In this document: one piece after another, positions 9,322 to 55,235 of the stretch
Layout of the letters: each line of letters starts with the position of its first letter
Position numbering within the stretch: the stretch's first letter is position 1
IMG/VR virus record: IMGVR_UViG_3300045988_159857
Span: 1-64,000 of that record
Strand: one strand, 5' to 3'
Source: a virus
DNA length: 64,000 nt
The notes under the pieces: generated by a model
The model's database searches: none
Told to the model about the DNA's origin: nothing
The model's input: the letters and a program-made list of their open reading frames with translations, nothing else
Program-made: the position numbers and the translations under genes

Positions 9322-10041
9322 TCAATCGTAACAGTATATAAGTTGCGTATTTGTTTGTAAATATGTTCTTAACTCACTTAATTCTGTGTTACCCTCGTTA
9401 AGTAATGTTTCACCGTCTTGTGCCCACAAGGCGTTGGATTGGGTGAATCTACTTCTTATTCTACCGACGTATATTTTTGATAAGGCTTTAGAAAGCCTCA
9501 TTATAACATCAATCCAGAAATCGGAGGTGACTTCCTCAACACTATCGTACCTTGGAACATATTCAATAGTTACACTGTCCCCTATATTTAGGGTTGTGTT
9601 TATATAAAGTTTTTTCTCACTGTCTTCAAAATAGTACGCCAAGTCAGTCGATAAGGTATTATGTATTTGTTGTACAGTACTCCAGGAAGAAAAATTGTAA
9701 GCATAATTTTGAAAGTTATACATACTTCCTAAACCGTTTGTAAATTGATATAATCCTAATTGAACAGGGTCTGTACTAACAGTACTACTATTACCTACAT
9801 CTCCACTTATACCTGTGCCAGTAGAACGTAAAACTTTAGTGACAGCGTTAACCTTATATTTTGTTAAATCAATACATCTACTATAAGGTACAGTTATTAT
9901 TTTTGTTGAACATATATACCTTTGAACTTCTCTTAGTGCTGAATTAACTATTTTCTGTAGGGTGCTATCGTCTACTTCTAAATCTAACACACCTCCAGTA
10001 AGAGCTAACTTTATTTCATCTACATAAGCGTCCATTTGCAT
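9322..10041 (-). CDS. Putative head-tail adaptor/neck protein
   Basis: 239 aa. N-terminus ...DEIKLALTGGVLDLEVDDSTLQKIVNSALREVQRY resembles adaptor-type N-termini. The call rests on position after the capsid gene and is weak. Confidence 0.35.
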   Translation of the reverse strand: MQMDAYVDEIKLALTGGVLDLEVDDSTLQKIVNSALREVQRYICSTKIITVPYSRCIDLTKYKVNAVTKVLRSTGTGISGDVGNSSTVSTDPVQLGLYQFTNGLGSMYNFQNYAYNFSSWSTVQQIHNTLSTDLAYYFEDSEKKLYINTTLNIGDSVTIEYVPRYDSVEEVTSDFWIDVIMRLSKALSKIYVGRIRSRFTQSNALWAQDGETLLNEGNTELSELRTYLQTNTQLIYCYD

Positions 10042-31695: not shown

Positions 31696-31883
31696 TGATT
31701 TTCCTCCTTAATAGAAAGCATCATCAAATCTGCAACAGCACTTTCAAGGGCTTCAAGTCTTTGAGAATCTGTTACTTGATTTTGAAGGAATGCTCTTTGC
31801 TTTTCGAGTTTATCATTAAAGTCTTGGATAAGCTTCATCGCCGCTTCATACTCGACCTTGTTATCTTTCTTGCTTAGCTCCAT
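31692..31883 (-). CDS. Small coiled-coil protein (XkdW position)
   Basis: 63-aa ORF between the fibre gene and the XkdX-like gene. Confidence 0.45.
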   Translation of the reverse strand: MELSKKDNKVEYEAAMKLIQDFNDKLEKQRAFLQNQVTDSQRLEALESAVADLMMLSIKEENQ

Positions 31884-33556
31884 TATTCTATTTCCCCCTC
31901 TACTGTGATTGAAAATCCTGTAAGCATTGCATCTCCTGTTAAAATCAATAATTGTGTTCTCTTGTTGTTAGCTTCATTTGTTTTGAAGAATAACTTTTTA
32001 TCTGTACTCTGCAACTGGGAGTAACACTGAATTGGATATGTAGCTTTGATACCGGAGAGGTCAAATGAGTTTGTAAATGTAACAGAATTTATCGGTTCCC
32101 AACAAACTCCAGTTGAAGTACCTTCCATATTATATGAACGTCGGTCATCTGCAACTGTTATAAAAACATCATTCTGGATTAAACCTTCATACCTTGGATG
32201 TTTTATTTGGGAGAGTTCAGTTGTTGTGCTTGTATCAATGATACAAGCAGGGTCTTCTGTAAAACTAAGTACTATACCTACATTGTCTCCAGAATATATA
32301 ATCTCTTTCGCGGTTAAAGAATTATCTGATTTGTTGATTTCAGTTTTTGTGCAGCATCCTATAGTGGTATAATTGTTTCCGGTAATTGGGTTACCATCAG
32401 CTGAAATTATAACACCTGTACCCCACGCACCATTACCCGAATAAATTGGATTTGGTGAATTCTTTATGTCCATATTGACAGCTCTTGCAGAAATTTTCAT
32501 TCTTAAATTTTTAGTATTGTTGGGGATGTTACAACTAATAAGCAAGTCATCAGGATAAGGTTTTCCAAATACCACTGTGTTGTTTGTAGTATCTACGGAT
32601 ATACAATGAATTAACTTATAGTTGTCGCTTGAATTCCAAGCATTGTTACGATTAAATTCTAATGTGTCATCAACAAATATATCATCACCATATGTCAATT
32701 TAAATTTTGTTTCGGCAGTATCAGTATACTTGATAAAGTAGAAAGTATCAGCTTTGAGTTTATTTACATTGCCTGTTATAATCGTAGGTTGGGTATCAAA
32801 AGGCATTGCAGACGTGCGATATTCCCATTTCCACTTTTTATTGTTGATATAATTGTCCCAGTTTATATACTTATTAGGAATCTGATTTACGTGGTCTACC
32901 ATATTCTTGAAATTTTTGAATTTAACTTGAGCTACAAAGTTTTCATTTCCACCGTATCCCGGCCCAATTACAAAACAGGCGTTTGGAGTATTGTGAACAA
33001 CGCCGATATCTTGTTCTACATCAGTTATCTCTAATGTAATACCGAATATAATACCAACATTTTCTACATCTTCTCCCATTCCCATTAACTCATTAGGAAC
33101 ATCTGCATCTACCGTTGTATATCCATCATCAAACATCTCTCTCACATTTACGGATTTAATGAATACATTGGTACCTGAGCTTTGAAGTTCTTCACCGTCA
33201 TAAACTTCGTATTCTAACTGTTGTCCGTCCGTAAATTGAGATAAATCAGCATCAGGCATTGGAACAGAACAATAAATTCCTTCGCCTGTTGCTTCATTCG
33301 TAATTGGAATTGTAAATTCCCACACATCGGATTCAATCTTTTCGTCATAGAACGGTCTATTCTTAATATAAGCAGAATTTTTACTATCATTTATATTCCA
33401 ATCGGATTGAGAATTTGCTTCACCATACAAATCGTTACCTTTATAAATTCTATGAGTATCGGTTGTAAAATATAATGCATTTGCTGATTTAGTTATATTG
33501 TCATATTCTGATTGTGAATATTTATAAAATTCTACTTTATCTTTTGTTACCATATC
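31883..33556 (-). CDS. Tail fibre / XkdV-like structural protein
   Basis: N-terminus MVTKDKVEFYKYSQSEYDNITKSANALYFTTDTHRIYKGNDLYG is fibre-like. Start moved to ATG 33556 (SD AGGAGGAG 7 nt upstream). Confidence 0.55.
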   Translation of the reverse strand, partial: DMVTKDKVEFYKYSQSEYDNITKSANALYFTTDTHRIYKGNDLYGEANSQSDWNINDSKNSAYIKNRPFYDEKIESDVWEFTIPITNEATGEGIYCSVPMPDADLSQFTDGQQLEYEVYDGEELQSSGTNVFIKSVNVREMFDDGYTTVDADVPNELMGMGEDVENVGIIFGITLEITDVEQDIGVVHNTPNACFVIGPGYGGNENFVAQVKFKNFKNMVDHVNQIPNKYINWDNYINNKKWKWEYRTSAMPFDTQPTIITGNVNKLKADTFYFIKYTDTAETKFKLTYGDDIFVDDTLEFNRNNAWNSSDNYKLIHCISVDTTNNTVVFGKPYPDDLLISCNIPNNTKNLRMKISARAVNMDIKNSPNPIYSGNGAWGTGVIISADGNPITGNNYTTIGCCTKTEINKSDNSLTAKEIIYSGDNVGIVLSFTEDPACIIDTSTTTELSQIKHPRYEGLIQNDVFITVADDRRSYNMEGTSTGVCWEPINSVTFTNSFDLSGIKATYPIQCYSQLQSTDKKLFFKTNEANNKRTQLLILTGDAMLTGFSITVEGEIE

Positions 33557-33573
33557 ATTACTCCTCCTACAAA

Positions 33574-33843
33574 TCACACTGAAGTATCGTTCCAGTATAT
33601 TGAAGTGTCTATATTCTCCAACTCTTTTTTAATATTGTCAAATTCTTCTGTGATAACCTTATTTTGTAATGGATTTGTCGAGGTATTCGACAACTCGGAA
33701 TCTATCTTAACAGTTAACCTTTTTATTTCTTCAGCCATTTCTGTAGGTGTCATTTCAGGTAGTGACTTATCAACATTACGAATACTGTCACCTATTTCAG
33801 TTAATGTTTCTCCATTTATAGTATAAATACTAATAGTAAACAC
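33574..33843 (-). CDS. Small fibre-associated protein (start codon uncertain)
   Basis: Contains STNPLQNKVITEEFDN. The track's GTG start overlaps the SD AGAGGTG. An in-frame ATT 6 nt after the SD (33834) is better placed. Confidence 0.5.
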   Translation of the reverse strand: MFTISIYTINGETLTEIGDSIRNVDKSLPEMTPTEMAEEIKRLTVKIDSELSNTSTNPLQNKVITEEFDNIKKELENIDTSIYWNDTSV

Positions 33844-41192: not shown

Positions 41193-41204
41193 AATATTAA
41201 CCTA

Positions 41205-41235
41205 TAAAAAATAGTGTAGTAAAAACTTACTACAC
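41205..41235 (-). terminator. Intrinsic terminator
   Basis: 9-bp stem, 41214-41222 with 41227-41235 (GTGTAGTAA/TTACTACAC), followed on the minus strand by TATTTTTTAT. Confidence 0.6.
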
Positions 41236-41237
41236 AT

Positions 41238-41271
41238 ATTATAATATCAAATATTATTAACTTTCAACTAA
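41238..41271 (-). promoter_or_regulatory. TTAGTTGA-type promoter abutting the terminator
   Basis: TTAG + -35 TTGAAA (41262-41267), an 18-nt spacer and -10 TATAAT (41238-41243). The predicted start falls inside the terminator's 5' arm. Confidence 0.5.
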
Positions 41272-41296
41272 CTTTTTATTTTAATGATAACATTTG

Positions 41297-41509
41297 TTAT
41301 ATATTATCATTACATTGTTTACGGTAGGCCATTTCAGCTTCAATAGCGTGAATCTTTACTTTTTCATTCTTGATATAATGACGAAGTGATATTTGAATTA
41401 AGAATGACCTTGTTGTTTGCAATGTCCTTTCCCAATCTTCAATTTGTTCAAGAAGTTCTTTTTTCTCTCTTTCCAAAGCTTGGTTAGAATACTTTTCATA
41501 GTTTTTCAT
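41297..41509 (-). CDS. Hypothetical coiled-coil protein
   Basis: 70-aa ORF directly after tRNA-Ser, SD AAAGGAAGTG. Confidence 0.5.
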   Translation of the reverse strand: MKNYEKYSNQALEREKKELLEQIEDWERTLQTTRSFLIQISLRHYIKNEKVKIHAIEAEMAYRKQCNDNI

Positions 41510-41538
41510 AACTTTTCACTTCCTTTTTGTTTTATTTA

Positions 41539-41633
41539 TGGCGTCAGCGATTGGACTTGAACCAACACACCGTTAAAAACGACTACTCAAGGATTAGCAA
41601 TCCTCTACCTTACCAAATTAGGTTTACGCTGAC
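41539..41633 (-). tRNA. tRNA-Ser (anticodon GCU), CCA encoded
   Basis: Hand-folded. Acceptor GTCAGCG/CGCTGAC, anticodon arm GAGGA-TTGCTAA-TCCTT, long variable arm, T arm with TTCAAGT loop. Confidence 0.8.
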
Positions 41634-42032
41634 AAATGGGAAAGTTTTTAATTATTAGAATAATAATTATTATAATAATAATCAAGGAATTACCAGAACT
41701 TTCAAACCTTCAGGAGTATATACTCTTTATCGTTTGTATTACTCTAAAAAACTAATCGGGTATTCTGTACGAAGTACTTTTTAACTAGTATGAATAAAGT
41801 ATTCGTACAGAATACTTAGAAAAACTAAGATAAAGTTTATTAAACCCTAACTTTTTTGATAAAATAAGTGATATTAAGTCTTAGAACTTGTTATTCCGCA
41901 GAATCAATCATTCAACTTAACTTGTCTTTTGTAGTCACTTAACTACTCAGGTTCTTTGTCAGCTACCTCGACCCCATCACTTAGACATCGTCCTTTCATA
42001 CTTTGCCATTCTTAAGATAGTGAATTAGGACT

Positions 42033-42108
42033 TGGCTCCTCAAGTTGGACTTGAACCAACGACTTCTTGGTTAACAGCCAAGCGTTCTACCAACTGAACT
42101 ATTGAGGA
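42033..42108 (-). tRNA. tRNA-Asn (anticodon GUU), CCA encoded
   Basis: Perfect cloverleaf. TCCTCAA/TTGAGGA, D arm GTTC-AGTTGGTA-GAAC, CTTGG-CTGTTAA-CCAAG, GTTGG-TTCAAGT-CCAAC. Confidence 0.9.
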
Positions 42109-42116
42109 ATATTTAA

Positions 42117-42193
42117 TGGTGACGACAAGGAGATTTGAACTCACTATTATATGCGTGAAAGGCATATGTCCTTACCTATTAGACGATGTCGCC
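42117..42193 (-). tRNA. tRNA-Glu (anticodon UUC), CCA encoded
   Basis: Acceptor GGCGACA/TGTCGTC (one G-U pair), anticodon arm TATGC-CTTTCAC-GCATA, T loop TTCAAAT. The T stem has one mismatch. Confidence 0.7.
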
Positions 42194-42363
42194 ATATGAT
42201 GTAATTAAGTGGCTTTCACGCTGACCCAGAGGGCGGATCGCTTGGTTTCCACATTCCAGATAGCTTGTACTTGACTGAGATAGCTATCAGTAATTCTCGG
42301 CTCTTTTATCTCTGGATTATAGAGCAATAAGCGTAGTAAGGTACCGTACTCCAGAGGCTTGAA
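42194..42363 (-). ncRNA. Structured 170-nt spacer RNA of unknown class
   Basis: No ORF. G+C-enriched by eye. AGATAGCT direct repeat (42258, 42278), palindrome GATAGCTATC (42279-42288), motif GGCTTTCAC (42211) shared with 43321. Confidence 0.3.
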
Positions 42364-42434
42364 GCTGGTGAAAGGACTTGAACCTTCAACTTATTGCGTA
42401 CAAAACAATTACTCTACCATTGAGTCACACCAGC
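42364..42434 (-). tRNA. tRNA-Thr (anticodon UGU), no encoded CCA
   Basis: GCTGGTG/CACCAGC, D arm ACTC-AATGGTA-GAGT, ATTGT-TTTGTAC-GCAAT, GAAGG-TTCAAGT-CCTTT. Confidence 0.8.
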
Positions 42435-42772
42435 ATATACAAGGTCGTTAAGTTTCTCGAATAGCGGACGTCCCTTTAACGACCTCTCCGTTCTCTCTAC
42501 ACATGGTAGAGGAACAATTACTTGTTGTCTGGATTTTGACTATTTTGGTTTGGACAAGTAACTCAAACCTCGGGTTTACCTATAACGTCGTTCCCTTATA
42601 AACCACGGAATGTTTTCGATTACATACAACGCTATCTTTTGCCATCCAAGCAGGGCGAGTACTTCCCTTGCTATCTCTAATCCGCTTCAACTATCCTAAA
42701 ACAGCCCGCCCAATTAGTTTTGGCTCTGCGATAACTTGATAGCTTTTAGTTTGTTCACCAACTGAACTTCGG
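42435..42772 (-). ncRNA. Structured 338-nt spacer RNA of unknown class
   Basis: No ORF. Helices include 42443-42451 with 42476-42484 (9 bp perfect), 42495-42500 with 42506-42511, and a 7-bp TACTTGT/ACAAGTA pair. Has a tRNA-like D-arm fragment at 42753-42772. Confidence 0.35.
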
Positions 42773-42859
42773 TGGTACAGGTAGTGGGACTTGCACCCAC
42801 ACGGAGTTTCCTCCACAGGTTTTTAAGACCTGTATGTCTGCTTATTTCATCATACCTGC
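42773..42859 (-). tRNA. tRNA-Leu (anticodon UAA), copy 1, CCA encoded
   Basis: Type II tRNA. Anticodon arm CAGGT-CTTAAAA-ACCTG, variable arm, T arm GTGGG-TGCAAGT-CCCAC, G1-U72 pair. Confidence 0.8.
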
Positions 42860-43094
42860 TTATAAATTTTATGTTCGATTACCTTCTAACGAACATTAGT
42901 ATTAAATATTAGTGGTATTTAATACTTTTCTCACTCACGGCTAACCCACTAAGTTATTTGTAGGAGGAAGATTTCGCATAATTAAACTTGTTACAGATCG
43001 ACATCTGAATTTAGGGCTCGAACCTAATAACAGAGGCTTAACCATTTTAGGAGCTACCTTGGACAAATTTTACGCTATATATCCATCAAGCGGC
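42860..43094 (-). ncRNA. Structured 235-nt spacer with an orphan T-arm
   Basis: T-arm-like TTAGG-TTCGAGC-CCTAA (43011-43027) with no matching acceptor stem. Hairpins at 42871-42896, 42898-42926 (11 bp) and 42994-43007. Confidence 0.3.
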
Positions 43095-43181
43095 TGGTAC
43101 CGATGACCGGACTTGAACCGGTACGAGGTTTCCCTCACAGGTTTTTAAGACCTGAGTGTCTGCCTATTCCACCACAACGGC
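43095..43181 (-). tRNA. tRNA-Leu (anticodon UAA), copy 2, CCA encoded
   Basis: Same anticodon arm as copy 1. T arm ACCGG-TTCAAGT-CCGGT. The acceptor has G1-U72 and a U5-U68 mismatch. Confidence 0.7.
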
Positions 43182-43226
43182 ATATAATCTACACTCTTTA
43201 TTTAATGTGTCGAGTGCACAAACACA

Positions 43227-43303
43227 TGGTCGAGATGACAGGACTTGAACCTGTGACTTCTGCACCCCAGATGCAGCGCCCTACCCAACTGGGCTACATC
43301 TCG
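43227..43303 (-). tRNA. tRNA-Pro (anticodon UGG), CCA encoded, apparent C at position 33
   Basis: CGAGATG/CATCTCG, D arm GCCC-AGTTGGGTA-GGGC, anticodon arm CTGCA-TCTGGGG-TGCAG, ACAGG-TTCAAGT-CCTGT. Confidence 0.75.
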
Positions 43304-43339
43304 ATAATGTTGAGCCAAAGGGCTTTCACCTTTGGGAAC

Positions 43340-43397
43340 AATGGTTGGATTTGCACTGCAGTTGCTTACCAACAGTCTTTCCAGGCGACTAACCATT
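43340..43397 (-). ncRNA. 58-nt tRNA-like minihelix
   Basis: 7-bp closing stem AATGGTT/AACCATT, D-arm-like AGTC-GCCTGGAAA-GACT, a short GTTG-GTAAG-CAAC hairpin and a T-loop-like TGCAAAT with no T stem. Confidence 0.3.
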
Positions 43398-43454
43398 AAC
43401 TTCAGTTACATTGTTTTTTCATATTAACATATTTTAAGAAATTTTCTTTTCGGT

Positions 43455-43528
43455 CGAAGCTTTGAAAACTCGAATTTCAACCTTTCCCCTGACATAACGG
43501 GGACGTGCTATCCACTACACTAAACTTC
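43455..43528 (-). ncRNA. Non-canonical tRNA-like gene (9-nt anticodon loop)
   Basis: Acceptor GAAGTTT/AAGCTTC. Only 1 nt before D stem GTGT/GCAC. Anticodon stem TCCCC/GGGGA encloses GTTATGTCA. Normal T arm TGAAA-TTCGAGT-TTTCA. No CCA. Confidence 0.4.
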
Positions 43529-43574
43529 TAATTTCTGCTATTATCAATTAAATTATTGTACAGATATAACTATA

Positions 43575-43693
43575 GTATAAGCTGTTCATCTAACTCCATT
43601 TAACTACTGCTGCTGCGTCCTAATACTAGTACCCGTAAATGGGTGATACAACAATTCACTCTATCTAGATATTAGGCTTCGTAGCACTTATAC
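43575..43693 (-). ncRNA. Nested-helix leader element at the 5' end of the tRNA array
   Basis: P1 43575-43583 with 43683-43693. P2 43619-43629 with 43665-43676 (11 bp with one bulge). P3 43631-43634 with 43641-43644. No ORF. Confidence 0.3.
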
Positions 43694-43746
43694 CATATTT
43701 TAATTTTTGACCTTGATAGTTATAAGTATAATTTATTTTTAATAAT

Positions 43747-44205
43747 TTAACCTTTTGATACGTCTACTCTATAATGAGATTCAATGTAGTCTAACTTATT
43801 CTTAAGCTCTCTAATCTCATCAAGTTTGTTTTCATAGAGAGTAAATACGTCAGGTTCGTCGTCATTTGAATTTTCTAATTCTGACTCCTCGTCATTTGCG
43901 TGCTTAAGTAACTCTCTAATGATATCCTCCAATCTATATGCTTCAGATTCTGCGGTTTTAAGCTTCGTTTGAATTACTTCATATGTATCATTATCAAACT
44001 TACGGATTTTGTTAGTCATTTTAGAAAGTCTGATAGCATACTCAAGAGCATTTCTTAATGTAAGTAGCTCGGTGTAGTCCTTACCTTTAACATCATAACA
44101 TGCAACGGAACACTCTTCATATTTGTAAAGGACGGCATCACACTCTTCTAGAAGTCTGTAAGCTTCAAGGTACGTAGGATTAAAGTTTTTTAAATCAATG
44201 TTCAT
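43747..44205 (-). CDS. Coiled-coil hypothetical protein
   Basis: 152-aa ORF, SD AAGGAG, downstream of two tandem promoters. The tRNA array follows with no obvious promoter of its own. Confidence 0.55.
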   Translation of the reverse strand: MNIDLKNFNPTYLEAYRLLEECDAVLYKYEECSVACYDVKGKDYTELLTLRNALEYAIRLSKMTNKIRKFDNDTYEVIQTKLKTAESEAYRLEDIIRELLKHANDEESELENSNDDEPDVFTLYENKLDEIRELKNKLDYIESHYRVDVSKG

Positions 44206-48494: not shown

Positions 48495-48527
48495 ATTATA
48501 ATATAAAACATAATAAATTTCAACTAA
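48495..48527 (-). promoter_or_regulatory. TTAGTTGA-type promoter built over the kinase gene's stop codon
   Basis: The TAG stop forms part of the TTAG box. -35 TTGAAA (48518-48523), a 17-nt spacer and -10 TATAAT (48495-48500). Confidence 0.6.
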
Positions 48528-49411
48528 TGTGCTTCAACGTCGGCTTCGTGAAGCAAATCAATATATTTTTTGAGAAATGTCGGTAATTGTTTGTAGTATT
48601 TCGTTTCCAAATACGGTTCCATATGTACATTAACTAACCATGAAACATTTATAACAGTACAAAGGTCATCACCTTGAAGAAGTCCCGGAATTAAATAACT
48701 ACCTACATTTTGGTTGTTGTAATAGTGTGCTATAGTTGTTTCTTCTTGTTTACTATTATGAAAATCTTTTACAAAAGGTTTGCCACAATCATGATATTTC
48801 GCAGCAGTAATCAAATATTTACTAACATTTTGTTTAGTAGACATTATACGTTCACACTCATTACAATGTTCTAAAATATTTAAGGTGTGGTGAGGGTTAT
48901 CGTGTGGTTCATCCATCATTGAGTATACTTTATCTTTGAACTTCTTAATATCAAAATTCTCATCGTTTATTAAATAGTTAATATGGTCCCAACCCTCGTC
49001 GAAAAACGGTGGTTGATAAAGTTTTACAAATTTATTTATAACATATTTACCAACATGTCGTTCACGATGTATATCTCTATCTATACAAACAGTTATAGGT
49101 GCCCACACTACTACGGCATACTTTACAACGTAAGAAGGTAATTTTGTTAAAAGTTCTTTACGTTTTTTACGTACAACATTGGTTGCATCATATATTACAT
49201 TAACACCTTTGTCTAAATTTTCAAGTGTTCTTACTAACATTTCCTTAAAAACTTTATTATTGTCTTCTTGTGAACTCGCATTCCCAAACAACTCTTGTCG
49301 TATCACATCAGAGGATATTATGACTGTACCAGGTTTTTTACGTTTTTGTCCGTAATAACTTTTACCACTACCGGGTAATCCTATTAGCATTGTGAACATT
49401 GGGAATTTCAT
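48524..49411 (-). CDS. Polynucleotide kinase (P-loop) fused to an HD phosphohydrolase domain (RNA end-healing enzyme candidate)
   Basis: N-terminal MLIGLPGSGKSYYG P-loop. C-terminal HDNPHHTLNILEHC...AAKYHDCGKP has HD-domain His/Asp motifs. Confidence 0.65.
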   Translation of the reverse strand: MKFPMFTMLIGLPGSGKSYYGQKRKKPGTVIISSDVIRQELFGNASSQEDNNKVFKEMLVRTLENLDKGVNVIYDATNVVRKKRKELLTKLPSYVVKYAVVVWAPITVCIDRDIHRERHVGKYVINKFVKLYQPPFFDEGWDHINYLINDENFDIKKFKDKVYSMMDEPHDNPHHTLNILEHCNECERIMSTKQNVSKYLITAAKYHDCGKPFVKDFHNSKQEETTIAHYYNNQNVGSYLIPGLLQGDDLCTVINVSWLVNVHMEPYLETKYYKQLPTFLKKYIDLLHEADVEAH

Positions 49412-49413
49412 AC

Positions 49414-49746
49414 TTAATTACACCTCTCGTAATAATCGTCAACAACCACACTACTTACAATACTTTTAGTATCTACTATGTTTGATTGTCCTTCGACAAT
49501 AGCATTAAATATTCGTGAAAGACATTCATCAACATATCTTTCGTAGTTAATATATTTATTTCTATGTGCGAATAGAGGACAATAAAATACAGTGACAACA
49601 TCTCCACCCTCAAGAGTACAGATAATATTTTGTGAACTATTTACAAATATTCTACATATTTTGTCTATTCGAACACACTGATTGTCTATTGTTTTTAACC
49701 ATTTTCCCACTTCAGCAACTCCTTTTCCCATTTGGAAGAATTCCAA
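49414..49746 (-). CDS. Hypothetical protein
   Basis: 110-aa ORF. Overlaps the ligase's 3' end, so the start may be MGKGVAE. Confidence 0.45.
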   Translation of the reverse strand: MEFFQMGKGVAEVGKWLKTIDNQCVRIDKICRIFVNSSQNIICTLEGGDVVTVFYCPLFAHRNKYINYERYVDECLSRIFNAIVEGQSNIVDTKSIVSSVVVDDYYERCN

Positions 49747-50873
49747 GTTTTCATATACTCCACTGGATTTTTATCATAAGCGAAGAAAAGATAAGACCTT
49801 ACCCATTCCGGATAACTATTAACTAACTGAGCATATTCTTTACGAGTATAATTTTGAGGAAGTTCCGTCCTAAGTTTAACCAAGTAACTAAACGCCATAT
49901 TTTTATAATCAATGATGTCGGCTTCAACGGATGCTAACTCTTTATTATAATCCGTACAATATGTTAGAAATTCTTCTCTTTCACCTTTAAGTATAACATC
50001 TATGAGATACTTTTTCGTAACAACATTATTATTACGCGCATAATGAGCTAAAACATAATTAGGGGATTTTATTTTTATACGATTATTTTTCTTATCATGA
50101 ACTACATAACCTTCTTCATCCCAAGGTAACTCTTTTGAAGCTAACACAACGTCCTCAAAGGTTGAAAGATTATACACCTTTGGAATTTTTACCCCAACAG
50201 TTAAAAAGTCTTTTGTGCATTCCGAATCGGTAAATGATGTTAGAAGGTCTTCTACATTTCTTTCTCCTAAAAAGTATAAACAGGTTTCATTATAAGGCAC
50301 AACAATTCTGTTATATGGGCTCACTAACTCAAAAATATATGTTTGTTTTTTATGTTTTTTACAAATTTTAATTAGTTTAGTTGTGTCCACCGAACTAACA
50401 AACAATTCACCAAAATTTTTATATTTAACACAATTAAGGGGTGCATTAAAAGCGTTTATAGTACCGTTTGTTGAAATCGTATAATCATCAATATCTGAAT
50501 TATACCACACTTTGATTAAAGAACCATCAACTTTTTCGGTAACCTTTGCAGAATTCCAATCAATTTTAGGTACATAAGATTCTTGATAGTTTCCAAACTT
50601 ATCAAAGGCGTGACAAACCGGTTTTGTCCATTCTCCCTCTCTAAATACTATTCCTCTACACTCTCTAACAATATAATTGTTGAAATCAGACTTTACTTGG
50701 TTATATGTAAACATTACATAATGTTTATCATTTTTATAATAATGTTGAGTTTTAACACAATAAGGTTTTTGACACAACAATTGTTCATAATTACTGTTCA
50801 GGTCACAAAAACGTCCTATTTGTGTGCTATAAACCATAAAAACACCGTCCTTAAAAGTGTAACTGAAAGTCAC
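49695..50873 (-). CDS. RNA ligase, T4 Rnl1-like
   Basis: ECRGIVFRE matches T4 Rnl1 ECRGIMFE. Adenylylation motif TEKVDGSLIKV matches TKEDGSLVS. Start may be the ATG at 50837 rather than the GTG at 50873. Confidence 0.8.
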   Translation of the reverse strand: MTFSYTFKDGVFMVYSTQIGRFCDLNSNYEQLLCQKPYCVKTQHYYKNDKHYVMFTYNQVKSDFNNYIVRECRGIVFREGEWTKPVCHAFDKFGNYQESYVPKIDWNSAKVTEKVDGSLIKVWYNSDIDDYTISTNGTINAFNAPLNCVKYKNFGELFVSSVDTTKLIKICKKHKKQTYIFELVSPYNRIVVPYNETCLYFLGERNVEDLLTSFTDSECTKDFLTVGVKIPKVYNLSTFEDVVLASKELPWDEEGYVVHDKKNNRIKIKSPNYVLAHYARNNNVVTKKYLIDVILKGEREEFLTYCTDYNKELASVEADIIDYKNMAFSYLVKLRTELPQNYTRKEYAQLVNSYPEWVRSYLFFAYDKNPVEYMKTWNSSKWEKELLKWENG

Positions 50874-55161: not shown

Positions 55162-55235
55162 TGGCAGGAATAAGTTGATTCGAACAACTACTGCAGCAGT
55201 CAAAGTGCTGTGTGCTACCGTTACACCATACTCCT
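55162..55235 (-). tRNA. tRNA-Gln (anticodon UUG), CCA encoded
   Basis: AGGAGTA/TATTCCT (one G-U pair), D arm GTGT-AACGGTA-GCAC, CAGCA-CTTTGAC-TGCTG, AGTTG-TTCGAAT-CAACT. Confidence 0.85.

Follow-up and report, generated by a model that had tools for sequence, protein, structure and literature searches.

RNAs other than tRNAs have been known from phage tRNA clusters since the 1970s, the classical cases being bands C and D of phage T4, which are cotranscribed with the tRNAs and released by the tRNA processing cuts. Two larger structured RNAs, ROOL (~580 nt) and GOLLD (~800 nt), also have to be considered in this context. The function of the T4 band C and D RNAs is still unexplained, and phage PAK_P3 encodes, in a large intergenic region between two of its tRNAs, an RNA termed sRNA2 that contains a T-loop-like stretch and ranks with the most plentiful transcripts late in infection (PMC4933390). 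ROOL and GOLLD are described as often lying next to tRNA genes in Firmicutes phages and prophages (PMC5737381, PMC12286853), and phage tRNAs are reported to be able to evade tRNA-targeting defences (PMC11555353). We have analysed positions 41510-43746 of a 64,000-nt stretch of viral DNA (positions 1 to 64,000 of the IMG/VR virus record IMGVR_UViG_3300045988_159857, in the following called the window), in which tRNA genes alternate with long spacers. This locus is probably a phage tRNA array of interchangeable blocks, in which most of the gaps encode a conserved and folded non-coding RNA of their own. The modules exist, they are constrained at the nucleotide level and non-coding, they show covariation of the RNA type, and they are exchanged as cassettes.

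Layout and modularity of the tRNA array

A sequence-only reading of the window had proposed that the region contains no credible open reading frame (ORF) on either strand, and this has been borne out: no minus-strand ORF exceeds 64 aa, and a 98-aa ORF on the plus strand overlaps the tRNA genes and represents their translation. The surrounding genes run on the minus strand throughout, and 41510-43746 is the longest part of the window without a minus-strand ORF of at least 50 aa. A second apparent gap at 484-1407 has been rejected, as it belongs to a gene that runs past the window end. The seven tRNAs named in that reading have all been recovered by ARAGORN and Rfam, which agree on a total of 571 nt, but an eighth tRNA-shaped gene at 43455-43528 had been missed. 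All eight lie on the minus strand and are uninterrupted (ARAGORN). The spacers amount to ~1.57 kb or 70%, so that most of the locus is indeed non-tRNA sequence. From high to low coordinates, the locus is composed as follows, the seven canonical tRNAs being calls of both ARAGORN and Rfam:

43529-43746, minus strand: spacer S0, 218 nt
43455-43528, minus strand: tRNA-like gene with a 9-nt anticodon loop (Rfam tRNA, 32.7 bits)
43304-43454, minus strand: spacer S1, 151 nt
43227-43303, minus strand: tRNA-Pro (UGG)
43182-43226, minus strand: spacer S2, 45 nt
43095-43181, minus strand: tRNA-Leu (UAA), copy 1
42860-43094, minus strand: spacer S3, 235 nt
42773-42859, minus strand: tRNA-Leu (UAA), copy 2
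42435-42772, minus strand: spacer S4, 338 nt
42363-42434, minus strand: tRNA-Thr (UGU)
42194-42362, minus strand: spacer S5, 169 nt
42310-42362, minus strand: S5a, variable 5' part of S5, replaced by an ORF in two related loci (L007, L008)
42194-42309, minus strand: S5b, conserved 3' RNA of ~115 nt, ending in the hairpin AGCG-UGAAAGC-CACU
42117-42193, minus strand: tRNA-Glu (UUC), 8 nt from tRNA-Asn
42109-42116, minus strand: Glu-Asn gap, 8 nt
42033-42108, minus strand: tRNA-Asn (GUU)
41634-42032, minus strand: spacer S6, 399 nt
41850-42032, minus strand: S6a, RNA of ~180 nt with the closing helix TAAGTGAT/ATCACTTA, followed by a U-rich tail
41634-41849, minus strand: S6b/S6c, a hairpin followed by an A+T-rich promoter-like stretch before tRNA-Ser
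41539-41633, minus strand: tRNA-Ser (GCU)
43747-44205, minus strand: 152-aa gene, context only, which travels with the module set

The spacers had also been called richer in G+C than the genome (~0.30), which is true of S4 (0.42) and S5 (0.44) and less so of S1 (0.36) and S3 (0.34), but not of S0 (0.28) and S6 (0.29).

Relatives of the locus have been gathered from the contigs of homologues of the 152-aa gene and by pattern scans, which has yielded about 29 loci from metagenome assemblies. Lineage (a) consists of ~120-kb phages that resemble the window, in which a kinase/HD gene and an ATP-dependent DNA ligase lie upstream and a dUTPase downstream; lineage (b) consists of ~118-kb phages with UvrD, SMC-like, SpoIIID-like and NAD-ligase genes; lineage (c) consists of ~46-kb phages; and L021 is a 41-kb contig without the 152-aa gene. 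On a block-by-block module map of these relatives (BLAST), S0, S1, S2, S4, S5 and S6 recur as discrete units across 3-4 otherwise different genomes, and the backgrounds that share them have little other DNA in common. Lineage (c) carries only S0, a degenerate tRNA-like piece, S1, tRNA-Pro, S2 and tRNA-Leu, and lineage (b) carries the tRNA-like gene, S1 and tRNA-Pro upstream of the 152-aa gene and S6a/b, tRNA-Leu, S4, tRNA-Thr and S5 downstream of it. The block of the first tRNA-Leu and S3 is absent as a unit in L006, and some relatives carry inserted ORFs, HNH endonucleases among them, precisely at module borders. The modules move between phage genomes as units.

S1 and S2 of L021 are 97% and 93% identical to those of the window, but the tRNA between them is only 74% identical, and L001 visibly shows more conservation in its spacers than in tRNA-Pro and tRNA-Leu. 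Such comparisons, in which the spacers have changed less than their flanking tRNAs, reverse the usual view of what is the payload of such an array. The tRNA of L021 (11579-11655) has the acceptor stem and T arm of the window tRNA-Pro, together with a different D arm and an anticodon arm that reads UAG (Leu), which looks like an anticodon-arm swap within a fixed frame. The two Leu-UAA copies of the window are 75% identical, and copy 1 occurs in CAA or UAA alleles among the relatives.

Several further observations concern the borders and the completeness of the modules. An HNH_3 ORF lies between S2 and a truncated first tRNA-Leu in L003 (9146-9664), L029 (9168-9686) and L030 (1961-2512), and elsewhere among the relatives S6 and tRNA-Ser are separated by a 110-aa ORF, or S5a has given way to an ORF of 67 aa. 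Between S4 and tRNA-Thr, L005 has an extra hairpin-rich segment of ~108 nt (9817-9924; a 135-nt gap on the BLAST module map), which occurs also in L004, L007, L024-L026 and L029, has no counterpart in the window, and could represent an additional RNA module. The window itself lacks 61 nt of S0 near 43565, holding a TTGACA-type box, and 18 nt of S6 near 41850, one half of an AAAAAGT...ACTTTTT hairpin, both of which are present in every relative. A lone ninth tRNA of the window, Gln-UUG (55162-55235, minus strand), is found 11 kb away from the array, in a gap of 305 nt.

Constraint and structure of the modules

The change tolerated by the spacers has been judged against the four-fold degenerate sites of the only neighbouring gene that is shared, which is the 152-aa gene. 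Between the window and lineages (b) and (c) these sites diverge by 15-36%, compared with 5.5-6% for S0, 4.6-11.6% for S1 (aligned columns), 4.4-8.9% for S2, 5-6% for S4, 3-5% for S5a and 3.5-5.8% for S6a, which amounts to a 3- to 5-fold deficit of change in the non-coding modules between backgrounds. The spacers do not code for protein: S4 and S1 carry frame-breaking indels of 1-2 nt and segments of variable length, the ORFs of S4 are broken by indels or stops in relatives, and the variable sites of a 40-aa TTG ORF in S5 are distributed over the codon positions as 8/5/6, compared with 28/25/78 in the neighbouring real gene. Hence the earlier suggestion that the spacers are not junk has been upheld by discrete conserved modules, compensatory changes, structure-preserving indels and the missing coding signal. 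Rfam is empty apart from the tRNAs, but related phages show conservation and covariation, and the sequence-only reading thus does not fail by the standard it had set.

The RNA encoded in S1 has a length of ~113 nt (core 43310-43422) and is predicted to form a three-way junction of the helices P1, P3 and P4/P5. In the alignment of 17 distinct variants from four genome backgrounds, the RNAalifold consensus comprises 26 pairs, and 99.5% of the cells are paired. The conserved part starts with an extended -10-like TGTTAATAT, ~7 nt before P1, a 7-bp helix (AACAATG/CATTGTT) that closes the junction. P3 (AGTC/GACT) resembles a D arm, AGTC-GCCTGGAAA-GACT, and is directly followed by a 5-bp stem; its insert of 0-25 nt forms a hairpin whose stem differs among variants (CGTC/GACG, TTACC/GGTAA, TTGTC/GGCAA, CCT..AGG), and a deletion variant (L024, L025) rebuilds one longer hairpin. 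P4 (GTYGG/CCRAC) shows one compensatory pair and carries P5 (RCA/TGY) with another. The D-arm-like hairpin with its 5-bp stem suggests that S1 descends from a tRNA. A permuted or intron-bearing tRNA has been considered and rejected, as the 7-bp 'acceptor' pairing found in L021 is not kept in other variants. A covariance model of S1, applied to all loci and the window, has found one copy per locus and no paralogues, so the spacers are not copies of one another.

Two loops of S1 are constrained. The P5 loop CUGCAG (43356-43361), above the covarying 3-bp stem, is self-complementary and invariant in 17/17 variants, which would allow loop-loop homodimers. P6, a 7-bp hairpin 11 nt before tRNA-Pro, has the loop pattern U-GNRA-N-Y in all variants (GAAA, GGAA, GUAA, GCAA, GAGA). 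The motif GGCTTTCAC, which had been pointed out at 42211 and 43321 and is present at both positions, corresponds to this P6 loop read on the other strand. As the second occurrence, the terminal hairpin of S5b (42204-42221) is complementary to the anticodon loop of tRNA-Glu and to part of its anticodon stem (42153-42164), 45 nt downstream, with 9 contiguous nt and one pair past a mismatch; this complementarity may be due to chance, since 19 inverted pairs of at least 12 nt are present in the 2.4-kb region scanned. A role of the motif as antisense to the tRNA-Glu anticodon loop has been dismissed, because its counterpart in S1 varies freely as GNRA, and GGCTTTCAC is therefore read as a GNRA-type hairpin loop and not as a tRNA-Glu binding site. 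The T-loop of tRNA-Leu copy 2, UGCAAGU (42784-42800), shows the same U-GNRA-N-Y pattern as the hairpin loops of S1 and S5b, with a G at the place of the near-universal U55.

S4 is a multi-helix RNA of ~335 nt that fills the whole gap between tRNA-Leu and tRNA-Thr. Its consensus from 14 distinct variants of lineages (a) and (b) has 88 pairs, with 5 compensatory and 12 one-sided changes that keep the pairing, and 6 of 1232 cells unpaired. The compensatory pairs are located in the 5' and 3' hairpins; some alleles have lost the apical part of the 3' hairpin or have another sequence in its place, and the stem covaries from GG/CC to AA/TT. Besides this replaceable apical loop, indels of 1-2 nt are seen, and the helix GGTTTG/CAAACC has become GGTTGG/CCAACC in L011-13. 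The loop of that helix, AGTTACTTGT, can pair with ACAAGTAAYT located 20 nt downstream; such pairing would amount to a pseudoknot or else to an alternative fold. S6a shows 93-99% identity across lineages (a) and (b), and in (b) it follows the 152-aa gene and not tRNA-Asn. Its consensus of 54 pairs has one compensatory pair, and the closing helix shows four changes that are wobble-compatible. Both RNAs fold far better on the sense strand, the alifold energies being -70.9 (sense) versus -53.7 kcal/mol (antisense) for S4 and -30.2 versus -17.5 kcal/mol for S6a. This G-U-rich and sense-favoured folding argues for RNAs rather than for palindromes at the DNA level.

The remaining spacers are smaller or less informative. 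S5b has been retained in L007 and L008 despite the replacement of S5a, as well as in lineage (b), where no tRNA-Glu follows it, and three compensatory pairs are found in a hand-drawn model. The S6b hairpin of ~20 bp (arms 41760-41779 and 41796-41815) has 14 nt of perfect complementarity and a conserved 15-nt loop, and its upper part covaries from TACTTT/AAAGTA to TGCT/AGCA in lineage (b); the promoter-like TTGAAA-16-GATTAT of S6c is located at 41705-41678. In S0, a promoter-like box is followed by a conserved leader RNA of ~190 nt upstream of the tRNA-like gene. It is ~94% identical in the 46-kb phages, in which four-fold sites of the adjacent gene diverge by 17-36%. Homology in lineage (b) starts right at TTGACA-17-TATAAG; in the window the box is TGGTATAAG, of the extended -10-like type, the conserved part begins at the -10-like TATAAG, and the middle part of S0 exists in two alleles. 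S2 holds, within 45 nt, a hairpin and the promoter-like box TCGACA-16/18-TAGATT/GATTAT (43213-43184); its identity in lineages (a) and (c) and in L021 is mostly 91-100% (89% in L007), and it is more conserved than both flanking tRNAs. S3, found in the window's own lineage only (97-99% identity), holds a canonical T-arm-like hairpin, TTAGG-TTCGAGC-CCTAA, in a region where no tRNA is called even at relaxed ARAGORN settings.

The eighth tRNA-shaped gene (43455-43528) aligns as a cloverleaf to the Rfam tRNA model, at 32.7 bits compared with a gathering score of 29. Its acceptor stem, D arm and T arm are normal, and its anticodon loop of 9 nt contains two extra bases (8 nt in some relatives). Among the relatives this loop varies as GUUAUGUCA, GUUUUGUCA, GUUCGUCA and GUUAGUUAU, while the gene outside the loop is 97-100% identical in lineage (a), L001 and L010 and 84% identical in L011-13. 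An oversized and freely varying loop on a near-frozen body makes an ordinary decoding tRNA unlikely.

Alternative explanations and possible functions

Regarding the way in which such RNAs would arise, transcription on the tRNA strand is expected to start at a strong promoter upstream of the 152-aa gene, with further starts at the internal promoter-like boxes before S0, S1, S2 and tRNA-Ser. In the transcript, the 5' end of each tRNA would be cut by RNase P and the 3' end by the enzymes that process tRNA 3' ends. Because the modules span the gaps from tRNA to tRNA, these ordinary cuts would release the spacers as discrete small RNAs, like T4 band C and D, and the short pieces S2, S6b and S6c would serve as promoter- and terminator-like elements.

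Several points weigh against an array of folded RNA modules. That the spacers accumulate as stable RNAs we purely infer. The sequence-only reading had found them full of perfect helices, which single-sequence folding does not bear out: the S6 sub-region with the ~20-bp hairpin (41760-41815) gives a strong minimum-free-energy (MFE) z-score of -4.0, but this is the sole one, and the z-scores of the spacers against dinucleotide shuffles on both strands lie between +0.3 and -2.5. Most of the helices show no variation; in S1 this applies to 23 of 26 pairs, and P1 and P6, being invariant, are neutral with respect to the model. The RNAalifold energies of S1 and S5b favour neither strand, and for S5b RNAalifold prefers a fold that differs from the hand-drawn one. 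The confinement of S3 to its own lineage makes it uninformative on structure. Several compensatory events come from a single lineage (L010 or L011-13), which leaves the covariation thin, the sequence diversity is modest, and since the aligned sequences are related, shuffle controls overstate its significance; for all modules the covariation seen in the alignments is suggestive. Within lineage (a), finally, S4 diverges by 4-6% and S5 by 8-19%, compared with 0-7% at four-fold sites of the flanking genes. Inside this lineage the array looks like a recombination hot spot at which diverged module alleles are swapped, which weakens a simple argument from purifying selection.

The latter result is taken up by the explanation that survives best beside the modular RNA array, according to which the spacers are cis-acting plumbing and debris (promoters, terminators, processing hairpins and tRNA pseudogenes) that has been exchanged recently and is degraded after cutting. 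We consider it rather unlikely. The promoter-like boxes in S0, S1, S2 and S6c and the large S6b hairpin fit it, as do tRNA-like fragments such as the T-arm of S3 and the D-arm-like P3 of S1, the spacers of lineage (a) that are no more conserved than synonymous sites, the ordinary MFE z-scores, and the mosaic nature of the genomes, in which the gene at 31883-33577 is also common to lineage (b). A scan of the locus for promoters and terminators has given no enrichment over shuffles. Signals of 30-50 nt, however, leave the conservation of the 335-nt S4 and the 180-nt S6a (93-99%, with compensatory changes) unexplained. Between backgrounds, moreover, the spacers are 3-5 times more conserved than the four-fold sites of the adjacent gene, in L021 and L001 they outconserve the flanked tRNAs, and loop constraints such as the GNRA of P6 and the CUGCAG of P5 are not expected of debris.

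An action of the blocks at the DNA level, as endonuclease recognition or homing sites, recombination hot-spot sequences or an origin-like element, is improbable. HNH genes and other ORFs are inserted exactly at the module borders, the recombination hot spot with alleles shuffled among backgrounds is clear, and S6b and S6c contain palindromes and A+T-rich direct repeats, all of which would suit such sites; the many G-U pairs that change to or from G-C or A-U would be meaningless in duplex DNA, though, the folding of S4 and S6a strongly favours the sense strand, a hairpin shape is kept despite different sequences (the P3 insert of S1, the 5' and 3' hairpins of S4), and endonuclease targets span tens of bases and not 1.5 kb. 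Proteins of 30-40 aa encoded by one or more spacers are very improbable, for although the 40-aa ORF of S5 is open in 11/12 variants and a 41-aa ORF of S3 is intact in all of its near-identical copies, the former has no codon-position bias, is frameshifted in L011 and has lost its start in L007 and L008, the ORFs of S4 are broken, the starts are TTG or GTG, and no Shine-Dalgarno sequence is obvious by eye, a formal scan not having been made.

The surroundings of the array bear on what the modular RNAs might do. A kinase/HD-phosphatase-like gene with AAA_33 and HD domains adjoins an RNA ligase 1 of the T4 gp63 type (phrog_562) at 48524-50873 (minus strand), 5-7 kb upstream of the array, and the two look like a tRNA repair pair. 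RNA ligase 1 is found upstream in some members of lineage (a); in the window it belongs to a PHROG RNA-ligase family, and in L006 and L007 a gene with Pfam RNA_lig_T4_1 stands at the same place. The 152-aa gene, preceded by a promoter-like TTGAAA-17-TATAAT at 44255-44227, adjoins S0 or S1 in lineages (a), (b) and (c). Its acidic product has 19 homologues with 58-99% identity in a large protein collection, matches no Pfam or PHROG family, and is predicted to form three long helices with an uninformative pTM of 0.41. Outside the tRNA locus, lineage (b) has one other gene in common with the window (31883-33577, minus strand; L010 13491-15155), which encodes ~560 aa of no family with ~88% aa identity and is further evidence of mosaic exchange. 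The identity of the major capsid protein of the window to those of cultured phages does not exceed 30%, Bacillus and Listeria myophages being the nearest. The source is an uncultured gut phage of Firmicutes type, for which the NrdD, SpoIIID-like and SPP1-type holin genes of relatives make anaerobic Firmicutes likely hosts.

The spacer RNAs could be part of a tRNA-centred takeover and counter-defence kit of the phage, either by diverting, as decoys or sponges, host factors that bind or cut tRNA, or by associating with one another. A role in the contest over tRNAs is speculation, prompted by the RNA ligase 1 beside the kinase/HD gene, by the tRNA-like RNA with its variable loop and by the precedent of phage tRNAs that defeat tRNA-cutting defences; an anti-defence role of the spacer RNAs is likewise speculative. 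Somewhat more specifically, it is tentatively conceivable that S1 and S4, perhaps with S5b and S6a, represent the first members of new classes of trans-acting structured phage RNAs. Self-complementary loops and GNRA-capped hairpins drive self-assembly in other natural RNAs, and the invariant self-complementary CUGCAG loop of S1, together with its always-GNRA hairpin, makes homodimers or higher assemblies possible. Alternatively, S1 could serve as a decoy by docking on a host factor that binds tRNA, for instance a processing enzyme or an anticodon nuclease. S4, for which a pseudoknot is possible, would with its ~335 nt add a mid-sized type to the ornate RNAs, and the array would be a tool kit of tRNAs and RNA effectors traded as cassettes. 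If the spacers are stable trans-acting RNAs, they would represent new RNA families in the phage-host tRNA conflict and candidates for RNA-RNA assembly and for nuclease decoys; if they are processing scaffolds only, the sequence constraint on pre-tRNA spacers would still be unusually strong.

Comparison with described RNAs

The search for known families has been made with Rfam 15, over the whole window at gathering scores and over 41200-44000 and S4 alone at E<=10. The canonical tRNAs match the tRNA model (RF00005) at 47.8-73.8 bits. At E<=10, the region 41200-44000 returns the tRNAs and three noise-level matches far below gathering scores, S4 alone returns none, and no spacer matches the tRNA model; ARAGORN, with introns allowed or with an 80% threshold, likewise finds no hidden or split tRNAs there. 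In these searches neither ROOL nor GOLLD has a covariance-model match, the locus has no Rfam match to group I/II introns, self-cleaving ribozymes or RNase P RNA, and no tmRNA is detected by ARAGORN or Rfam. These results exclude the said families as far as the models see, and the suggestion in the sequence-only reading that ROOL, GOLLD, introns, ribozymes or tmRNA might be involved has thus been abandoned. The spacer sequences belong to no described RNA family. A blastn search (word size 11) of 41400-43850 against 50,697 INPHARED phage records has matched tRNA genes only, so no cultured relative carries the spacers. Exact-pattern scans have found S1 in 2 contigs and S4 in 0 contigs of IMG/VR, and 3 contigs in the JGI/ENA metagenomes; scans for S1/S4 in 185,579 reference genomes, one per bacterial or archaeal species, have given 0 matches and hence no clue to a host or prophage.

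ROOL and GOLLD, which are likewise large structured RNAs near phage tRNA genes, differ from the present modules in their covariance models, which do not match, and in size, the largest module here having ~335 nt. S1 differs from tRNA (RF00005) in its topology, which is not a cloverleaf. The sRNA2 of PAK_P3 is closer in layout, and its T-loop-like stretch recalls the T-arm-like hairpin of S3 and the 7-nt hairpin loops of S1 and S5b, which start with U as a T-loop does; in PAK_P3, however, there is one RNA of ~100 nt, without homology by blastn, in contrast to a whole series here. The stable RNAs of T4, already invoked as a precedent by the sequence-only reading, have proved to be the right analogy. 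In both cases a virulent phage has genes for non-tRNA RNAs interspersed with its tRNA genes, here between the tRNAs and on the same strand, and the window genome also has a T4-type RNA ligase 1 and a kinase/phosphatase gene. The two differ in that the locus has no sequence similarity to T4 (blastn, INPHARED) and comprises at least 5 modules of up to 335 nt. Taken together, the locus is a richer and comparatively tractable example, as its modules, at least 5 in number, come with natural variants and are traded as cassettes with particular tRNAs. Non-tRNA RNAs in a phage tRNA cluster are a known type, and it is in the number, the size and the cassette behaviour of its modules that this locus goes beyond the examples of T4 and PAK_P3.

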